Notes under the pieces: model-generated
The model's database searches: none
The model's input: only the letters and a program-made list of their open reading frames with translations
What the model was told of the DNA's origin: nothing
In this document: positions 12,399-46,469 of the stretch, in pieces
How positions within the stretch are numbered: the first letter of the stretch is position 1
How the letters are laid out: the number at the start of each line of letters is the position of its first letter
Made by a program: the position numbers and the translations under genes
Origin: a virus
Lineage: Duplodnaviria > Caudoviricetes
DNA: 58,404 nt
Direction: 5' to 3' (one strand)
IMG/VR virus record: IMGVR_UViG_3300003465_000373
Coordinates: 1-58,404 of that record

Positions 12399-12403
12399 AA
12401 ATA

Positions 12404-12470
12404 TGTGCGACAAGAAAAAAGTAAGAGGTTCGATGATTAAAAGTCATGTACTCCTACAAACATCCGCACA
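12404..12470 (-). ncRNA. rod RNA capped by a tRNA-Lys(TTT) anticodon stem-loop
   Basis: TGTGCG/CGCACA closing stem, GTAGGAG/CTCTTAC mid stem, apical ATGA-CTTTTAA-TCAT. Confidence 0.65.
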
Positions 12471-12472
12471 AG

Positions 12473-12545
12473 TGCCTCGCCAGGGGATTGAACCCTGCAC
12501 GTCCAGGTTAAGAGCCTGGTGCCTCTCCATTGAAGCGTGCGAGGC
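12473..12545 (-). tRNA. tRNA-Lys(CTT)
   Basis: CCAGG-CTCTTAA-CCTGG. Confidence 0.85.
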
Positions 12546-12551
12546 GTTAAG

Positions 12552-12629
12552 TGGAACTGGCCGGACTCGAACCGAGCATTTTGCCCCTCTTAGGTGGGGT
12601 GGCTTTCTCCTGTTAAGCCTTACAGTCCC
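12552..12629 (-). ncRNA. non-canonical tRNA with Ala-type acceptor and ambiguous CTAA loop
   Basis: GGGACTG/CAGTTCC-A (G3:U70), 5-bp D stem, CCCC-ACCTAAGA-GGGG. Confidence 0.6.
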
Positions 12630-12634
12630 GAGAG

Positions 12635-12731
12635 CGGTGAGAGGTAGGAGTCGAACCTACATCCCCTGAGTTGGACCCCAGGTATCTTAGTCCATGCCAC
12701 CGTCCAAGGTGGACTTTTAGACGACCTCACC
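12635..12731 (-). ncRNA. Trp(CCA)-like tRNA with D-loop hairpin complementary to its anticodon loop
   Basis: D insert CCACC-TTGGAC-GGTGG; anticodon arm CCTGGG-GTCCAA-CTCAGG; normal T arm, G73. Confidence 0.75.
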
Positions 12732-12742
12732 AGAAGAACCAG

Positions 12743-12814
12743 TCGAGCCGGTTGGAATTGAACCAACTACCTACTCCTTATCAGAGAGACGTGCTACCGG
12801 TACACCACGGCTCG
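12743..12814 (-). tRNA. tRNA-Ile(GAT)
   Basis: Loop CTGATAA; cloverleaf. Confidence 0.82.
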
Positions 12815-12927
12815 ATGCGTGCCGGTCCTGGGGCATGGTAAACCTTACGGGCCGGCACACACATCTAATCATATAAATTTATTCTCCTCCCCTCGCCCAG
12901 ATGTGTGAGAAGGCTTAGTTCAGAGAG

Positions 12928-13001
12928 GGTGACTATCGGGAATCGAACCCGAACCTCCAGATTCACAGTCTGGCGTGAACAACCTTTACACCATAGCCAC
13001 C
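12928..13001 (-). tRNA. tRNA-His(GTG)
   Basis: CCAGA-CTGTGAA-TCTGG, G-1:C73. Confidence 0.92.
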
Positions 13002-13006
13002 ATCAG

Positions 13007-13228
13007 TCATCTGTCTTTCGGACAGACTTTCTTCAACGCCTTTTGGATGGCGTCAATCGCTTCGTGTGCGATCCAAATCTGTTCGTTGTGTGACTCCTCG
13101 CTCAACCCCATAGGGCAGTTGAGACTGTGGAGGCATTCACGCAACTCGTCCAACTTCTCGTCAATGAACAACACAGGATTATTCTTCACTGTCTTCCCTT
13201 TCGGGTAGTAATTCGTGACATAGTTCAT
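13007..13228 (-). CDS. hypothetical protein
   Basis: ORF from MNYVTNY. Confidence 0.5.
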   Translation of the reverse strand: MNYVTNYYPKGKTVKNNPVLFIDEKLDELRECLHSLNCPMGLSEESHNEQIWIAHEAIDAIQKALKKVCPKDR

Positions 13229-13266
13229 ATCGACTGTTGGGCCTCGTTTCTTCAATACTTTTTCAG

Positions 13267-13390
13267 TGCCCCTGGCGGGATTTGAACACCGCTCTAACGG
13301 CTTAACAGGCTGTAGTCCTTCGAGGGCATTCCAAGCGGACAAGAAGGTGAAAGACGTTTTTACGTCGTGCTTCCATTACACTACAGGAGC
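13267..13390 (-). ncRNA. tRNA-like RNA with ~50-nt insert between D arm and an Asn(GTT) anticodon arm
   Basis: GCTCCTG/CAGGGGC-A, D arm GTGT-AATGGAA-GCAC, extra hairpins, ACAGC-CTGTTAA-GCCGT, T arm. Confidence 0.7.
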
Positions 13391-13491
13391 GTTTTCCACG
13401 ACCAAATCGAAGAGAGTTTTCTCCCCCGTAAGTGGAGGAGTTCAGAGTCGAACTGAATAAACCATGTACTCCGCTTCAGCATTCGTAGAAG

Positions 13492-13562
13492 CTGTAGACC
13501 AGGGACTCGAACCCCAACTAAGACGTTCAGAGCGTCTCGTGCTGCCATTACACCAGTCTACA
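13492..13562 (-). tRNA. tRNA-Gln(CTG)
   Basis: AGACG-CTCTGAA-CGTCT, U1-A72, G73. Confidence 0.9.
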
Positions 13563-13573
13563 ATGTTTCAAAG

Positions 13574-13700
13574 TGCCAGGGGTAGGAGTCGAACCCACAT
13601 CGCCCGGCTTATAAGACCGGGGCTTTAGTTCACACAGTCCTGTCTAATGTGTGAGTGACAGCGTGCTATTCCGGCCCAATCCGGCTTAAGCTACCCTGGC
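13574..13700 (-). tRNA. tRNA-Ile(TAT) with ~55-nt structured D-loop insert
   Basis: CCGGT-CTTATAA-GCCGG; acceptor GCCAGGG/CCCTGGC-A; D stem encloses two hairpins. Confidence 0.78.
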
Positions 13701-13704
13701 GTAT

Positions 13705-13845
13705 TGGTTGCAGGAACCGGACAGCTACCCCGGTATCTCCCCCAATGTTCCATTGGCGTTCTGGCCTACGGCCGGGGGTATCCTTGCACCCCCATATGCT
13801 GGCGAGTAGGCCAGGTGGTGGAGGCGGCTTTTGAACGATCCTGCG
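13705..13845 (-). ncRNA. tRNA-like RNA with initiator-type acceptor end and encoded CCA
   Basis: C-GCAGGA...TCCTGC-A-A-CCA; internal 9-bp stem CTGGCCTAC/GTAGGCCAG; degenerate T loop. Confidence 0.6.
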
Positions 13846-13847
13846 AG

Positions 13848-13919
13848 CAGCCACGGAAGGACTCGAACCTTCATATCCTGCTTAACAGGCAGGCGAATTA
13901 CCAATTATTCGACACGGCT
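13848..13919 (-). tRNA. tRNA-Asn(GTT)
   Basis: CCTGC-CTGTTAA-GCAGG, G73. Confidence 0.88.
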
Positions 13920-13925
13920 AAAATG

Positions 13926-13999
13926 CTGCTGCGGGGGACTCGAACCACCTCCTGCTCCCTCAAATGGGAGCTATGCTGCCCATGATACACCACGCAACA
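13926..13999 (-). pseudogene. Gln(TTG)-like tRNA with 6-nt anticodon loop
   Basis: GCTCCC-ATTTGA-GGGAGC, U1-A72, imperfect T stem. Confidence 0.6.
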
Positions 14000-14056
14000 G
14001 TTTTGGACCATAACCGAATTGTCAAAGAACTTCCCACCCAGAGGGGGGTTGTCAAG

Positions 14057-14128
14057 TCTCGGAGGCAGGATTCGCACCTGCGACCTGGAACTTATGAGGC
14101 TCCCGAGCTACTGCTGCTCCACTCCGAA
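14057..14128 (-). tRNA. tRNA-Met(CAT)
   Basis: GGAGC-CTCATAA-GTTCC; T loop GTGCGAAT. Confidence 0.82.
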
Positions 14129-14130
14129 AG

Positions 14131-14205
14131 TCGGGATGGCAGGAGTTGAACCTGCGTTCTCCAGTATCCGAAACTGGCGACCACTCCAAGCTGGTCCACA
14201 TCCCG
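14131..14205 (-). tRNA. tRNA-Pro(CGG)
   Basis: CCAGT-TTCGGAT-ACTGG. Confidence 0.9.
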
Positions 14206-14264
14206 GTTTCTTCGGTTTTGGGATGCCGTGTTAAATCGGCAGAGAACCGTCGCCAAACTCTCAG

Positions 14265-14339
14265 TCGGGGGAGGAGGATTTGAACCTCCGTTCTTCTGCT
14301 TCCAAGGCAGACGACCACTCCAAGCTGGTCCACCCCCCG
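14265..14339 (-). tRNA. tRNA-Pro(TGG)
   Basis: TCTGC-CTTGGAA-GCAGA. Confidence 0.9.
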
Positions 14340-14608
14340 ATTACTTCTCCAAGTATTCCAACTCACACCAGGCGAAGCCCCAGCCATCCCAGAACAGGAG
14401 TGCCGTGCCGGCTTGCCAGTTAATCTCCTTTACCAAACCCGCCACGGTCGAAAACATCGGGTCTTCGTACTTCTTGTACTTCCAGAACTCACCGACCTTA
14501 ACTTCCATGATGGTCTACCTCGTGTAAACATCGCCAGTTGTGCTAAAGGACTTATGTGCTCTCCCGAGACTGAATCTGCCTTTTACACCAATACCTCTCT
14601 GGCCTAAG

Positions 14609-14679
14609 CAGGTCCGCAAGGATTTGAACCCTGACTGACAAGGTTGGAGCTTGTCGTGCTGCCGTTACACTACGGACCT
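14609..14679 (-). tRNA. tRNA-Trp(CCA)
   Basis: ACAAG-CTCCAAC-CTTGT, G73. Confidence 0.92.
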
Positions 14680-15024
14680 GTGTATTTCTTCCCAATGCAA
14701 CTTCTTGTGACAGTTAGAACACAAGATGATACACTTGGCTATTTCTTGAAGTATCCTTTCTCTGCTCCATCCATAGGACGCCACTTTGGAGAGTGCCCTA
14801 TCCTTATGACTTGGATCATCGTGGTGAAACTCCAAGCAGGCTTGGTGATCTTCACCGCATCGAGAACACTTCAACACTGACTTGTAGTCAGCGAGCCACT
14901 CTCGTAGCTCAGTTTTTCGTTCCTTGACCTTGCTTTTCGCTCGGTCCTTGTTATTGGCATACCACCGACGCCGATACTCACGGCATTTGTCGAGGTTCGC
15001 CTGTTTCCATTCTGCTGTAGCCAT
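14665..15024 (-). CDS. HNH endonuclease
   Basis: CSRC..DH..CLEFHH and KCIILCSNCH motifs; same family as 296-709. Confidence 0.82.
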   Translation of the reverse strand: MATAEWKQANLDKCREYRRRWYANNKDRAKSKVKERKTELREWLADYKSVLKCSRCGEDHQACLEFHHDDPSHKDRALSKVASYGWSRERILQEIAKCIILCSNCHKKLHWEEIHRSVV

Positions 15025-18553: not shown

Positions 18554-18585
18554 AACGGAGTATCTATACCCGCTGGAGACGAATT

Positions 18586-18972
18586 TCACTTCGGCAAACT
18601 GAGGCCGTGCGGGTGATAACGTCCATCTTTCTTTGATACGAAGACAAAACGAGCATCAGCGATGTGGTCCTTGCCGGCCTTGGCACGGTGCTCACGATAA
18701 GCCTTAACTTCAATCACAATTGCATTGCGACGAAGTTCTTTAATCTCCGCTCGGAGAAAAATGATGTCACCCGCTTCGGCGGCTCCATGAAAAGTGCCCT
18801 CGTACTTGTAAGTAACCGCTGAGTCACATTCGGAGTCATGGAGAAGCCTGTAGGCACAGCAGGCGGCAGCCTTGTCAAGCTCGCTGAAAAACGCACCACC
18901 AAAGATCATGGGATATTGAAAATTGCACTGGTCAGGCATGACCGTGAACGCCGTTTCAAATACAAGATTCAT
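18586..18972 (-). CDS. acyl-CoA thioesterase (hotdog fold)
   Basis: VMPDQCN..MIFGG.FFSELDKAA and ARFVFVS motifs. Confidence 0.85.
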   Translation of the reverse strand: MNLVFETAFTVMPDQCNFQYPMIFGGAFFSELDKAAACCAYRLLHDSECDSAVTYKYEGTFHGAAEAGDIIFLRAEIKELRRNAIVIEVKAYREHRAKAGKDHIADARFVFVSKKDGRYHPHGLSLPK

Positions 18973-20435: not shown

Positions 20436-21614
20436 TTATGACAACTGCCTTTCCGGTATCGCAGCCCCACTTTGAATCAGGTGACTCTTTGTCTCCTCAA
20501 TCAGTTGGCCGAGCCACTTGATGTACGGCGTACCGCCAGTGCCGGTCGGGTTATCGACTCGCTTCTGGATGTAATTCACGGCGTAGTCGAAGTGCTGCTG
20601 ACGGAATTTGATAAGCTCCTCCACGCAAGCGTTGTACGCCTCGATTGTGTTTTTGACTGCTCCCGACCCCGGCTTTTGTTCATGGTTGTGTATGATGTAG
20701 TGTCGGACGCCGGTGATGCCGTCCATGTAGGCCAGGTGCTCAGGCGGCATGTAGTCCCGCATCTCGTCCAGGTGGTGCGTCAACATCGAGTCTTCATGCT
20801 TGATGCCAAGGAACTTCAGTAGGCTTGGCACAATGCTGCTCTGGGCACCAGTCTCGCCACGGTAGTTCTGCGGCTCATTATCAAAGCAGCCCTCATACAC
20901 GACATCGGTGAAGCCGAAGATATAGGGGCGGACCTGAGAGTAGTACACATCCGGGCTGCACCCTTCCGGCATCCTGGCCAGGGTCGCATTCATGGCTACT
21001 AGACTCTTGTGGACACGCTCAAGAGCCGGTTGCTGGACGCTCGACTTGTACACTTCATAGCCCTTGTACTCTGCGATGGCCTGCAACGCCTCCGCTGCCC
21101 TGGCCTCAATGTCAACATGAACCAGGATGAACCAATCCTCGTCCTTCTTGGCCTTTCGGGTGAAGTTCTGAAGAAGCTCGATGTTGCCGAGTTCAATGGG
21201 GCCGTTCTGGTCGATCCGCTTCCAGTTGTGCAAGCAGTAAGAGGCATACGACAGGATGGGCGGACGACCAACTGCCTTCGCCAGCCGCACAAGGGGTTGA
21301 GCGATGTAGTAGGGGATCGACTTCTGTACCTTGCCACGGTAATCCCTGGCATGGATCACAGCACTGGCGATGTAGGAGAAGAGCATAAAAGCCCGCTCCA
21401 CCGCCATGTCATTCTCGCAGTCGATGAACTCGGTAAGGCTAAAGTGCTTGTCGAAGATCGGGTGGGTGGTGATGTACTCCTGGAGTCGGCCCTCGTCCAC
21501 GAGGTCGGGGAGATCACGACACAGTTGCTCCAGATAGGCGAACTCACGCACCCGGATGGCTTCCAGTGGGTCTTTATTGGGCAGAAAGCCACGGTCTTGC
21601 AAGGTCCATTTCAT
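20436..21614 (-). CDS. indoleamine 2,3-dioxygenase family heme enzyme
   Basis: RPPILSYASY..NW, EDWFILVHVDIE, GETGAQSS, MRDYMPPEH, FRQQH, GTGGT motifs. Confidence 0.9.
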   Translation of the reverse strand: MKWTLQDRGFLPNKDPLEAIRVREFAYLEQLCRDLPDLVDEGRLQEYITTHPIFDKHFSLTEFIDCENDMAVERAFMLFSYIASAVIHARDYRGKVQKSIPYYIAQPLVRLAKAVGRPPILSYASYCLHNWKRIDQNGPIELGNIELLQNFTRKAKKDEDWFILVHVDIEARAAEALQAIAEYKGYEVYKSSVQQPALERVHKSLVAMNATLARMPEGCSPDVYYSQVRPYIFGFTDVVYEGCFDNEPQNYRGETGAQSSIVPSLLKFLGIKHEDSMLTHHLDEMRDYMPPEHLAYMDGITGVRHYIIHNHEQKPGSGAVKNTIEAYNACVEELIKFRQQHFDYAVNYIQKRVDNPTGTGGTPYIKWLGQLIEETKSHLIQSGAAIPERQLS

Positions 21615-32487: not shown

Positions 32488-32683
32488 TAGTGTCCGGGGT
32501 GGGGGTCGAACCCACATGACCCATTTTTTGAGAATGGGATGTCTCGCCAGTTGCATCACCCGGACGATACGGGCAGTGCCTACAACCTGAACTGCAACAG
32601 TAGCCTCGCTTCAACAGGAACAATTCTGTGAAGACGTACTTGCCGTTCTCCAAGTAATAGTCAACACCCTCAACGAGCTTCAT
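32447..32683 (-). CDS. DUF5522-like small Cys-rich protein (3' end overlaps tRNA)
   Basis: DYYLENGKYVFTE.FLLKRGYCCSSGCRHCPY. Confidence 0.7.
   Translation of the reverse strand: MKLVEGVDYYLENGKYVFTELFLLKRGYCCSSGCRHCPYRPGDATGETSHSQKMGHVGSTPTPDTNAGPTHGKPRQPH
32491..32565 (-). tRNA. tRNA-Leu(CAA), short variable region
   Basis: CCATT-CTCAAAA-AATGG; no V arm. Confidence 0.85.
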
Positions 32684-32687
32684 GGAG

Positions 32688-32762
32688 TGTTAGCGGTGGG
32701 ACTCGAACCCACAAAACCCTGGTTCTGAACCAGAGATGTCTCACCAATTGCATCACGCTAAC
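32688..32762 (-). tRNA. tRNA-Leu(CAG), short variable region
   Basis: TCTGG-TTCAGAA-CCAGG. Confidence 0.85.
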
Positions 32763-32767
32763 GTAAG

Positions 32768-32841
32768 TAGCCCCGAGAGGACTCGAACCTCCAAACTGCT
32801 GGCTCTAAACCAGCCGGCTTTGCCAATTTGCCTACAGGGCC
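32768..32841 (-). tRNA. tRNA-Leu(TAG), short variable region
   Basis: GCTGG-TTTAGAG-CCAGC. Confidence 0.87.
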
Positions 32842-33393: not shown

Positions 33394-33398
33394 ATTAG

Positions 33399-33473
33399 TG
33401 TCACCGGTGGGACTCGAACCCACAAGACCCAGGCTCTCGACCTGAGATGTCTCGCCAATTGCATCACGGTGAC
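33399..33473 (-). tRNA. tRNA-Leu(GAG), short variable region, C33
   Basis: TCAGG-TCGAGAG-CCTGG. Confidence 0.8.
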
Positions 33474-33479
33474 GTAAAG

Positions 33480-33554
33480 TAGCCTCGGTGGGACTCGAAC
33501 CCACAAAACAAGTCATTTTAAGTGACCCGGATTTGCCAATTCTCCTACGAGGCC
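33480..33554 (-). tRNA. tRNA-Leu(TAA), short variable region
   Basis: GGTCA-CTTAAAA-TGACT. Confidence 0.87.
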
Positions 33555-45032: not shown

Positions 45033-46469
45033 TTAGATGACGAAGTTCGCAATGCTCATACGAGCGTAGAACTTGGCACCTTCACGCAACAACTTCTTTC
45101 CATAACGGGTCAAGATACCCTTGCGTGGGCAGAAGCTCTCAGGATCAAGAACAACTGGAGTCTGGGTCAACGGTACATATGGACAGTAGAAGTAACCCGA
45201 GTCCATATAACTATCACCACGGTATCCCATGAGAATCTGTCCAGATGGGAACAATGGGTCTTTGTACAACCGCCACCGGTTGTTAACAGTACCAACGTAC
45301 TGGATACCAAGAGACGAAGTGAACGTCTCAGATGGAGTCGGTGCGAAACCTGCGGTTGCCGTCTCGAAGATGGAGGCGACTTCAGGGCTGGTCACAAGCC
45401 AGTTGCAGCCACCACGCAGCGTCTTCCGGTGGACGACGTTGCTAACTTCAACAACCTTGACGTACAGAGACTCGTACTTTTCCTTGATCGTGTCACCCAG
45501 GGCTGTGTTGAAATCCCATGCCGCAACCGTACCTGCGTTGTTACGGAGGTCGGTGAGAACTTCACGGTCAATTTCCAGGTTAATTTCCTGGGCCAGAACT
45601 GCGGTCAACTCGGCCTCTGCGTCCAAGTTGTGCTGGGAACGCAAGTCCTGCTGGGCCTCGTAGCTCCAGACTGCCTTCAACTTGCGAGTCTTGGCCGTGA
45701 TGTCTTCCGACTCAATGACCAAGTTCACTTCTGGCAGGTCTTGGTTGCATTCCATGTTGTACTCGTAAGAGGCAACGATGGAGTTAGCACCTGGGTCTGC
45801 GGACCAAGTGAAGGTTACAACACCACTCGTGGCGTTGAGGGTAGCGGCAGTTACCTTCGGGGAAGGCGTGCCGATGTCAACGAACACGATAGAGCCGGCG
45901 GCGTTCGTGGAGAACGTCTGGATTGCAACTGCACCGTCATACACGGTTCCCAAGAACGTGCCGCTGAAGACCGGAGTCTTCTCCAACGTGTAGGTGAGGC
46001 TCGTGCCGCCACCGGCGTTGTTCTGCGTCTCGTTCTGGACGAACTGCGACGTGTAGAAGATGTCCAAGTTGCCATCACCAGATGCCAACTGCTGGAGGGA
46101 CGAAGAGTCGTCCGATGGGAAGCCACCCTGGTTGGTCGCACCACGCATCGCACCCTTGTTGGAGGAGTAGCGGAAGCGGAGGTAGTACACAAGGCCAGTT
46201 GGACCCAAGAGCGGCTGAACGCTAACAATCTTGTTTGCGATCAACTGCGGGTAAATACGGCGTACCAACGGAATAGAGATACGCTTGAATTGTGCGATGT
46301 CGCTCGTGTCGGTCGAAACCTCATTGATGAGCCTCTGGTTTTCCAGAAGGACGGCGGTCGTTCCCCTGACGAAGCGATCATTGATGCCTTCGAGAAGGCC
46401 AACCTCACTCCAACGACGCTCCAACACGGCAGCTTCGTTGAGCAGGCGAGAGTTCATACTCATGTTCAT
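45033..46469 (-). CDS. gp23: major capsid protein (T4 gp23-like)
   Basis: TAVLLENQ, SVQPL.GPTGL, AKTRKLKA.WS.EAQQDL..HNLDAEAEL, YCPYVPL, P.KG..TRYG. Confidence 0.97.
   Translation of the reverse strand: MNMSMNSRLLNEAAVLERRWSEVGLLEGINDRFVRGTTAVLLENQRLINEVSTDTSDIAQFKRISIPLVRRIYPQLIANKIVSVQPLLGPTGLVYYLRFRYSSNKGAMRGATNQGGFPSDDSSSLQQLASGDGNLDIFYTSQFVQNETQNNAGGGTSLTYTLEKTPVFSGTFLGTVYDGAVAIQTFSTNAAGSIVFVDIGTPSPKVTAATLNATSGVVTFTWSADPGANSIVASYEYNMECNQDLPEVNLVIESEDITAKTRKLKAVWSYEAQQDLRSQHNLDAEAELTAVLAQEINLEIDREVLTDLRNNAGTVAAWDFNTALGDTIKEKYESLYVKVVEVSNVVHRKTLRGGCNWLVTSPEVASIFETATAGFAPTPSETFTSSLGIQYVGTVNNRWRLYKDPLFPSGQILMGYRGDSYMDSGYFYCPYVPLTQTPVVLDPESFCPRKGILTRYGKKLLREGAKFYARMSIANFVI

Follow-up and report, generated by a model that had tools for sequence, protein, structure and literature searches.

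The 58,404-nt stretch of viral DNA analysed here (IMG/VR virus record IMGVR_UViG_3300003465_000373; the whole stretch is called the window below) carries a 127-nt tRNA-Ile(UAU)-like gene whose acceptor, anticodon and T arms are complete. Its D region appears to be expanded by about 54 nt that are predicted to fold as two tandem hairpin modules. We read this gene, hereafter the target, as a tRNA-Ile(UAU) gene of a huge T4-like phage, expanded or interrupted in a lineage-specific way and probably maintained, and give this reading a probability of roughly 45%. It would then be one of a class of interrupted or expanded tRNA genes kept by the phage lineage, not junk; we infer both its maintenance and a stable 127-nt RNA product. 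This reading is favoured because the tRNA scaffold is perfect, the anticodon is unique in the window and other insert-bearing tRNA genes of the lineage are under selection.

From 5' to 3' the target consists of GCCAGGG, UA, GCUU, 62 nt, AAGC, C, CCGGU-CUUAUAA-GCCGG, GCGAU, GUGGG-UUCGACU-CCUAC, CCCUGGC and A (Table 1). Its two ends form a 7-bp acceptor stem followed by discriminator A at 13574, and CCA is not encoded. The anticodon arm has a 5-bp stem and a 7-nt loop with U33 and a purine at 37, and the 5-nt variable loop GCGAU, of the 4-5 nt expected, precedes a T arm whose 5-bp stem closes a UUCRANY loop. The D arm departs from this pattern. Where a stem of 3-4 bp closing some 7-11 nt of loop is expected, 62 nt separate GCUU (13688-13691) from AAGC (13622-13625), an excess of about 54 bases over a normal tRNA. 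A first-pass annotation of the window had called a tRNA-Ile(TAT) with an insert in its D loop and all other arms intact at 13574-13700. Sequence reading, the acceptor search and the deletion scan bear out a UAU-type gene on the minus strand, its three other arms are complete, and the two elements placed in the D region, CCGG-AUUGGG-CCGG and UCACACA-UUAGACAGGAC-UGUGUGA, are both present there.

Table 1. Coordinates of the target, its parts, related insert-bearing tRNA genes and other features. Coordinates without a locus handle (L) refer to the window; G handles denote phage records.
Feature	Coordinates	Strand	Basis or remark
tRNA-Ile(UAU)-like gene (target), 127 nt	13700..13574	minus	sequence reading, acceptor partner search, deletion scan
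Acceptor 5' strand, GCCAGGG	13694..13700	minus	7/7 Watson-Crick with 13575-13581
Hairpin module 1, GCU-UAAG-CCGG-AUUGGG-CCGG-AAU-AGC	13665..13691	minus	RNAfold minimum free energy fold, pair probabilities
Hairpin module 2, GCU-GUCAC-UCACACA-UUAGACAGGAC-UGUGUGA-ACUAA-AGC	13622..13662	minus	RNAfold; 7-bp stem, probability 0.86-0.95
CUGUC, proposed pseudoknot strand	13657..13661	minus	complementary to GACAG, 13640..13644, in module-2 loop
Anticodon arm, CCCGGU-CUUAUAA-GCCGGG	13603..13621	minus	UAU at 13611-13613, U33, A37
T arm, GUGGG-UUCGACU-CCUAC	13582..13598	minus	T-loop motif, acceptor search, fold
Acceptor 3' strand, CCCUGGC	13575..13581	minus	acceptor partner search, RNAfold fold
Paralogue of target, 0.9 kb away	12635-12731	minus	variable loop and T arm nearly identical to target's
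277-nt tRNA-like gene	3419..3143	minus	D stem GUGU/GCAC closes 201-nt structured insert
52-nt insert copy, tRNA-Asn(GUU)	13267-13390	minus	
52-nt insert copies	L098 (G006) 871-995, 6212-6336, 14780-14904		
52-nt insert copies, further loci	L107 12517-12645; L106 1389-1517; L108 895-1022; L109 4943-5063		
tRNA-His-like gene, 116 nt	L115 9174-9289 (G012)		two D-loop hairpins, z = -4.7
tRNA-Ile(UAU), 98 nt	L107 4974-5071 (complete 532-kb G006)		31-nt variable region with hairpin
Further long tRNA genes, 109-154 nt	L115 10850-11003 (approx.); L120 ~18554-18697; L095 18731-18880, 18893-19001; L143 (140 nt)		
Five short Leu-anticodon tRNAs	32490-32565, 32687-32762, 32767-32841, 33398-33473, 33479-33554	minus	
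T4-type major capsid protein	45033-46469	minus	
T4-type portal gene with intein	52425-55004	minus	

The tRNA scaffold of the target is far beyond chance. Within 400 nt upstream, the acceptor 3' strand has a single partner matching at 7/7 positions, at 13700, and the rest have 6 pairs. The spacing on either side of the insert is canonical; AAGC, the complement of GCUU, ends exactly 1 nt ahead of the anticodon stem. In the deletion scan, a single contiguous deletion of 48-62 nt was enough for ARAGORN to call tRNA-Ile(tat) with an unchanged 5' end, in 221 of 1120 deletion variants.

The identity set of bacterial isoleucyl-tRNA synthetase, as worked out in E. coli, comprises A73, A35, U36, A37 and A38 together with certain acceptor-, D- and anticodon-stem pairs. 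All five bases are found in the target. U12:A23 is present only if GCUU/AAGC is taken as the D stem, and 4:69 (A:U) and 29:41 (G:C) are unlike the E. coli tRNA-Ile pairs. A canonical 75-nt tRNA-Ile(UAU) at IMG/VR locus L105 (7850-7924) has a 17-nt anticodon arm core identical to that of the target, and resembles it in type in its 7-bp acceptor stem, 5-nt variable loop, T arm and discriminator A. Its D loop starts with A-GCCGG, as in the target, and its D-stem strands lie 9 nt apart as against 62 nt in the target.

Standard tRNA finders pass over the target. It is neither among the 49 genes called in the window by default ARAGORN nor among the 41 tRNA matches of Rfam at gathering score, and in E-value mode Rfam aligns its 3' 71 nt only, at 19.1 bits against a cut-off of 29. 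With introns allowed, ARAGORN proposed a tRNA-His(gtg) with a 30-nt intron at 13573-13700, which was rejected for its 3-bp anticodon stem and poor D arm. A 311-nt 'split tRNA' combining the target with the adjoining tRNA-Gln (13743..13433) was also rejected; it restores no anticodon arm, and its acceptor match of 7 pairs, one of them G-U, is near chance by rough estimate.

All 49 called tRNA genes lie on the minus strand, which also carries all 63 copies of the T-loop motif GTTCRANYC (0 on the plus strand). Fourteen of these copies, the target's among them, fall outside called tRNAs. The target sits in a co-oriented array of more than 50 tRNA genes, and the anticodon UAU is supplied by no other called tRNA in the window. 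The array tRNAs are bacterial-type, with a tRNA-His that encodes G-1 and tRNA-Tyr genes of 81-83 nt, exceeding class I. CheckV estimates completeness at about 12%. Of 381 IMG/VR relatives of the window's major capsid protein, the 80 kept have 79-87% identity and some are located on contigs of 343 and 533 kb; the top match among deposited phages is LR756511.1, a 595-kb uncultured phage (75.6%). The window is therefore a piece of a huge T4-like phage.

RNAfold gives the whole target -50.6 kcal/mol (z = -2.8) with all three canonical arms formed. The D stem GCUU/AAGC has a probability of 0.004, and enforcing it gives -46.8 kcal/mol, a penalty of 3.8 kcal/mol. The program favours two tandem hairpins, each closed by GCU/AGC, at RNA positions 10-36 and 39-79 (27 and 41 nt). 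Module 1 (pair probabilities 0.83-0.95 for GCU/AGC and 0.99 for CCGG/CCGG) looks like an extended D-arm-like hairpin with GG within its terminal loop. Module 2 corresponds in position to the extended D arm of the paralogue at 12635-12731. That arm, GUC-UAAAAGU-CCACC-UUGGAC-GGUGG-CAUG-GAC, is built like the target's modules: 3 bp close it, an internal loop follows, and a 5-bp stem then leads to a UUGG-type loop. On the predicted fold, the insert may be better described as two tandem extended D-arm-like hairpins than as a D loop plus an insert.

The first-pass annotation had instead drawn an H-type pseudoknot between CUGUC and GACAG and suggested a small ribozyme, an intron or a protein-binding module. 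The two strands are indeed complementary, and together with the 7-bp hairpin they allow an H-type pseudoknot to be drawn, its loops measuring 2, 3 and 3 nt. When the 62 nt are shuffled 20000 times with dinucleotides preserved, 2.7% of the shuffles contain a 7-bp Watson-Crick hairpin and 0.14% contain the hairpin with a 5-nt pseudoknot partner; the rarity of this combination speaks for the pseudoknot. Given the hairpin, however, the partner comes by chance in 4.4%; the test was framed post hoc on a stem that is itself a low-complexity (CA)n/(UG)n repeat, and the searches found no homologue in which covariation or conservation could be followed. As a nested alternative helix CUGUC/GACAG reaches about 0.01 in the RNAfold ensemble, which cannot model pseudoknots. 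The pseudoknot is thus sterically possible yet unsupported. At E <= 10 the target has no match to any Rfam family of self-cleaving ribozymes or introns; the 6 Rfam matches at that threshold in 13400-14000 include no hammerhead, twister, pistol, hatchet, HDV-like or group I family. The insert, at about 54 nt, is far short of group I intron size, and it has no P3 equivalent, unlike the HDV-like double pseudoknot. We regard a small self-cleaving ribozyme or functional H-type pseudoknot within the D loop as very improbable.

A finder for long tRNA genes based on a T arm and acceptor pairing, applied to the window and related huge phages, revealed further interrupted or expanded genes. One in the window, a 277-nt gene without an Rfam family match, has an Arg UCG-type loop, ATTCGGA, within a 19-nt anticodon loop and a 284-nt homologue in another huge phage (record G011, L120 17292-17575). 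Between the two, 7/7 acceptor pairs are kept, 4 of them changed on both sides, and 5/5 anticodon-stem pairs are exchanged, while the T stem is likewise preserved by compensatory change; RNAalifold counts 17 pairs with two-sided changes overall, some of them inside the insert. Purifying selection on the tRNA scaffold can thus go together with a D-loop insert in this lineage.

A second group shares a 52-nt hairpin insert that splits the anticodon stem in its 5' strand (positions 28/29 to 30/31), found in 8 tRNA genes of 4 phage records. The insert consists of an A-rich 5' linker, a 9-bp covarying helix, an invariant UUGUCC-NNNN-GGAAUGC and a 3' UACA, and its removal restores a perfect 5-bp stem and 7-nt loop in 7/8 copies. 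Pairing in the long helix reaches 94.8%, 4 of its pairs have changed on both sides, and its covariation score was reached by 0/500 shuffles. Different tRNAs are interrupted in this way, and at L098 4872-4970 a shorter variant stands in place of the anticodon arm. A covariance model of the family (R1), run with filters off on the window, scored 67.4 bits at 13292-13366 and gave a weak match of 13.4 bits (E 0.16) at 6719-6794. These genes resemble the target in being phage tRNA genes of the same array, intact but for about 50 nt of structured insert close to the D/anticodon junction; the family insert sits at anticodon stem 28-31, whereas that of the target lies in the D region and is without UUGUCC...GGAAUGC...UACA.

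The only other tRNA-Ile(UAU) found among the related records, in the complete 532-kb relative, also has an extra hairpin. It lies in the variable region, has 5 bp and a 7-nt loop CUGAUUA, is anticodon-arm-like and carries GAU, the other Ile anticodon; either arm is canonically spaced on one side. The remaining long genes of 109-154 nt, from related or other huge phages, have inserts in the D loop, the anticodon loop or stem, or the variable region.

The target itself could not be traced elsewhere. An exact 30-nt stretch of the insert had 0 matches in IMG/VR, and a pattern of the anticodon arm plus T loop had 1 there, an unrelated canonical tRNA. Two metagenome scans for relatives of the target gave 0 and 0, and scans of GTDB genomes gave 0 and then 1 unrelated canonical tRNA, in an Alcaligenaceae metagenome-assembled genome. 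In 15 related phage records BLAST of the gene picked up the generic T arm alone, and blastn-short of the insert against the DNA collected for the analysis returned only the self-match. Control queries behaved similarly: the anticodon arm of the neighbouring tRNA-Asn recovered 9 IMG/VR loci, none with its acceptor stem, while the 3' end of the paralogue and a neighbouring protein each had 0 matches. Because control queries from the array fared no better, the missing homologues of the target say little; none of the collections searched contains a near relative of the array. One DNA sequencing run has a trace of the phage, with 5% of sampled words, and no RNA run is listed. Compared with 12400-14800, this DNA run holds one identical 139-nt piece (13430-13568) and nothing covering the target.

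Several observations weigh against a maintained gene. The internal structure of the insert exceeds chance only weakly: the insert alone has z = -1.05 with 31/200 shuffles folding equally well, and among 400 shuffles of the D region 134 were at least as stable and 137 kept all three canonical arms. No homologue of target or insert was found, and so no covariation speaks for selection on the target. It does not belong to the 52-nt family, whose model R1 misses it at E <= 10 with filters off. Clearly degenerate tRNA fragments, a T-arm/acceptor mini-helix at about 13425-13470 and a piece like a tRNA 5' end at about 13708-13743, indicate that decay occurs in this array. The splicing endonuclease EndA (PF01974) and the ligase RtcB were found in 0/5 phage records including the complete 532-kb relative, a search in which the host is unknown and the window is about 12% of its genome, so that absence is not proven. 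Finally, a retained extra arm near position 26/27 would probably clash with the ribosome, judging from general tRNA-ribosome structure.

The orphan insert, the missing fold signal and the tRNA debris nearby keep a recent pseudogene in play, in which a once canonical tRNA-Ile(UAU) gene was hit at the DNA level by an insertion or local duplication in the D region. In that case it would no longer yield a functional tRNA, and its stems would have survived merely because little time has passed. The degenerate tRNA-like pieces of the array fit such an origin, as do its HNH endonuclease genes, which suggest recombination, and an 11-nt near-copy of the target's 5' end 34 nt upstream, although about one such pair is expected by chance on a rough estimate. 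Two of the three insert-bearing window genes with a readable anticodon also repeat anticodons of canonical copies (Asn GUU, Arg UCG). The target differs on both counts: its canonical elements are all perfect, whereas decay is obvious in the degenerate neighbours, and no other called window tRNA supplies UAU. The lineage's other insert-bearing tRNA genes are demonstrably under selection, and phage genomes tend to shed dead DNA. A decaying pseudogene is accordingly doubtful in our view, though it has to be taken seriously.

The target is most likely transcribed together with its array neighbours because it is co-oriented with them and lies 11 nt upstream of tRNA-Gln. Its ends would most likely be cut as in the neighbouring tRNAs, since the acceptor/T-arm stack recognised by end-processing enzymes is perfect. 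The insert would be either removed, by an endonuclease and phage-encoded RNA ligases, or kept as an extra domain. If it is kept, the RNA would probably be no ordinary decoder and might serve as a tRNA-like RNA.

Removal in the strict sense would make the insert of about 50 nt a true intron, excised by some phage or host endonuclease, with phage RNA ligases joining the ends into a tRNA-Ile(UAU) of 73-79 nt. One contiguous deletion does give back a canonical tRNA, and the complete relative encodes one Rnl1-like ligase and three PF09414 RNA ligases. The 52-nt family points the same way: within the anticodon stem its insert seems incompatible with decoding if retained, yet its host genes are intact, which argues for some removal mechanism in the lineage. 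The target, however, shows none of the known excision signals. A bulge-helix-bulge (BHB) search found 2 weak motifs where 500 shuffles predict 1.8, and excision at either would not take out the insert; there is no group I or ribozyme match; and besides the missing EndA and RtcB, the insert is without the conserved motifs of the 52-nt family, so that a shared recognition mechanism is not evident. Among the window's open reading frames no RNA-processing enzyme was seen besides methyltransferase domains. The motifs AGGACTRY and TAAAAAYG were tried and are not enriched in the window. A true intron is a decidedly unlikely explanation on this evidence.

A wider proposal is that the bacterial-type tRNA genes of huge T4-like bacterial phages are interrupted by structured intervening sequences that form an as yet undescribed system, with the target as a D-region member. 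Insert positions in such a system would be the D loop, anticodon stem, anticodon loop and variable region. Because insert-bearing genes stay under selection, the inserts would be excised by a non-BHB, non-group-I route or act as functional extra domains. The target would possibly be tied to AUA decoding, since the clade's only other tRNA-Ile(UAU) found has an extra hairpin as well. We consider this proposal unlikely as it stands, if less so than a true intron in the target.

Archaeal tRNA introns at non-canonical positions, the D loop included, resemble the insert of the target in lying outside 37/38 and in that their removal restores the cloverleaf. They are excised at a BHB by the splicing endonuclease, whereas the target has no BHB, the related phage records have no EndA, and the array tRNAs are bacterial-type. 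Class II tRNAs with their long variable arm and tRNA-Sec with its lengthened D stem are functional with an extra or longer arm near the D/anticodon hinge; in the target the extra material, hairpins of 27 and 41 nt, belongs to the D loop or to 26/27 and thus to the 5' side of that hinge. We know of no described functional tRNA with this two-hairpin D-region arrangement, and the literature, as far as it was accessible to us, held no report of one. A possible parallel comes from phage T4, whose tRNA region is described as encoding two small RNAs of unknown role (PMC3014915). These, RNAC and RNAD, are stable, non-tRNA-sized RNAs from a T4-type tRNA cluster; the target differs in presenting the entire tRNA scaffold, with the anticodon arm complete.

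Other features of the array were recorded in passing. An HNH endonuclease gene (14665-15024, minus) lies inside it adjoining tRNA-Trp, and an indoleamine 2,3-dioxygenase-family gene (20436-21614, minus) lies between tRNA clusters. Five tRNAs of 75-76 nt have the Leu anticodons CAA, CAG, UAG, GAG and UAA and no long variable arm; similar 77-nt genes occur in relatives (L095, L103), and tRNA-Leu genes of the ordinary class II type are found at three places in the window, 22011, 28297 and 29477. At 6343-6428 (minus) is an 86-nt tRNA in which the anticodon stem closes a 20-nt loop containing both a Glu-type CUUUCAC and an Asn-type AUGUUAA; ARAGORN calls it Glu(ttc), or Asn(gtt) with a 13-nt intron. 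Anticodon loops of 6 or 8 nt are seen in the tRNA-like genes at 12635-12731, 7754-7826 and 13925-14000 (all minus). The piece at 13425-13470 (minus) has a T arm and acceptor 3' strand, UUCAG-UUCGACU-CUGAA-CUCCUCC-A, but nothing in its vicinity is recognisable as a 5' half or as an anticodon arm; it looks like a tRNA 3' fragment or mini-helix. The 146-nt spacer directly upstream of the target (13701-13846, minus) folds strongly, at -61.2 kcal/mol (z = -2.75), has no Rfam match and includes a tRNA 5'-end-like piece, ACCGGGGUAGCUGUCCGG, resembling the target's own 5' end.

To our knowledge, bacterial and phage tRNA genes are held to be uninterrupted except for group I introns, and tRNA finders assume so. 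We found no report of inserts of this kind in phage tRNA genes in the literature, to the extent that it was accessible. Up to 67 tRNAs have been reported for huge phages, in a study whose main text has 0 uses of 'intron' (PMC7162821). With 14 of the 63 T-arm motifs of the window lying outside called tRNAs, interrupted tRNA genes may be common in huge phages. If such genes are functional, tRNA counts and codon-coverage analyses of huge phages would be systematically incomplete, and either bacterial cells would harbour a new route for removing intervening sequences from tRNAs or there would be tRNA-like RNAs of a class that has extra domains. This is not proved by the target alone, which nevertheless offers a clean, testable example that carries the only AUA-reading anticodon seen in the window.
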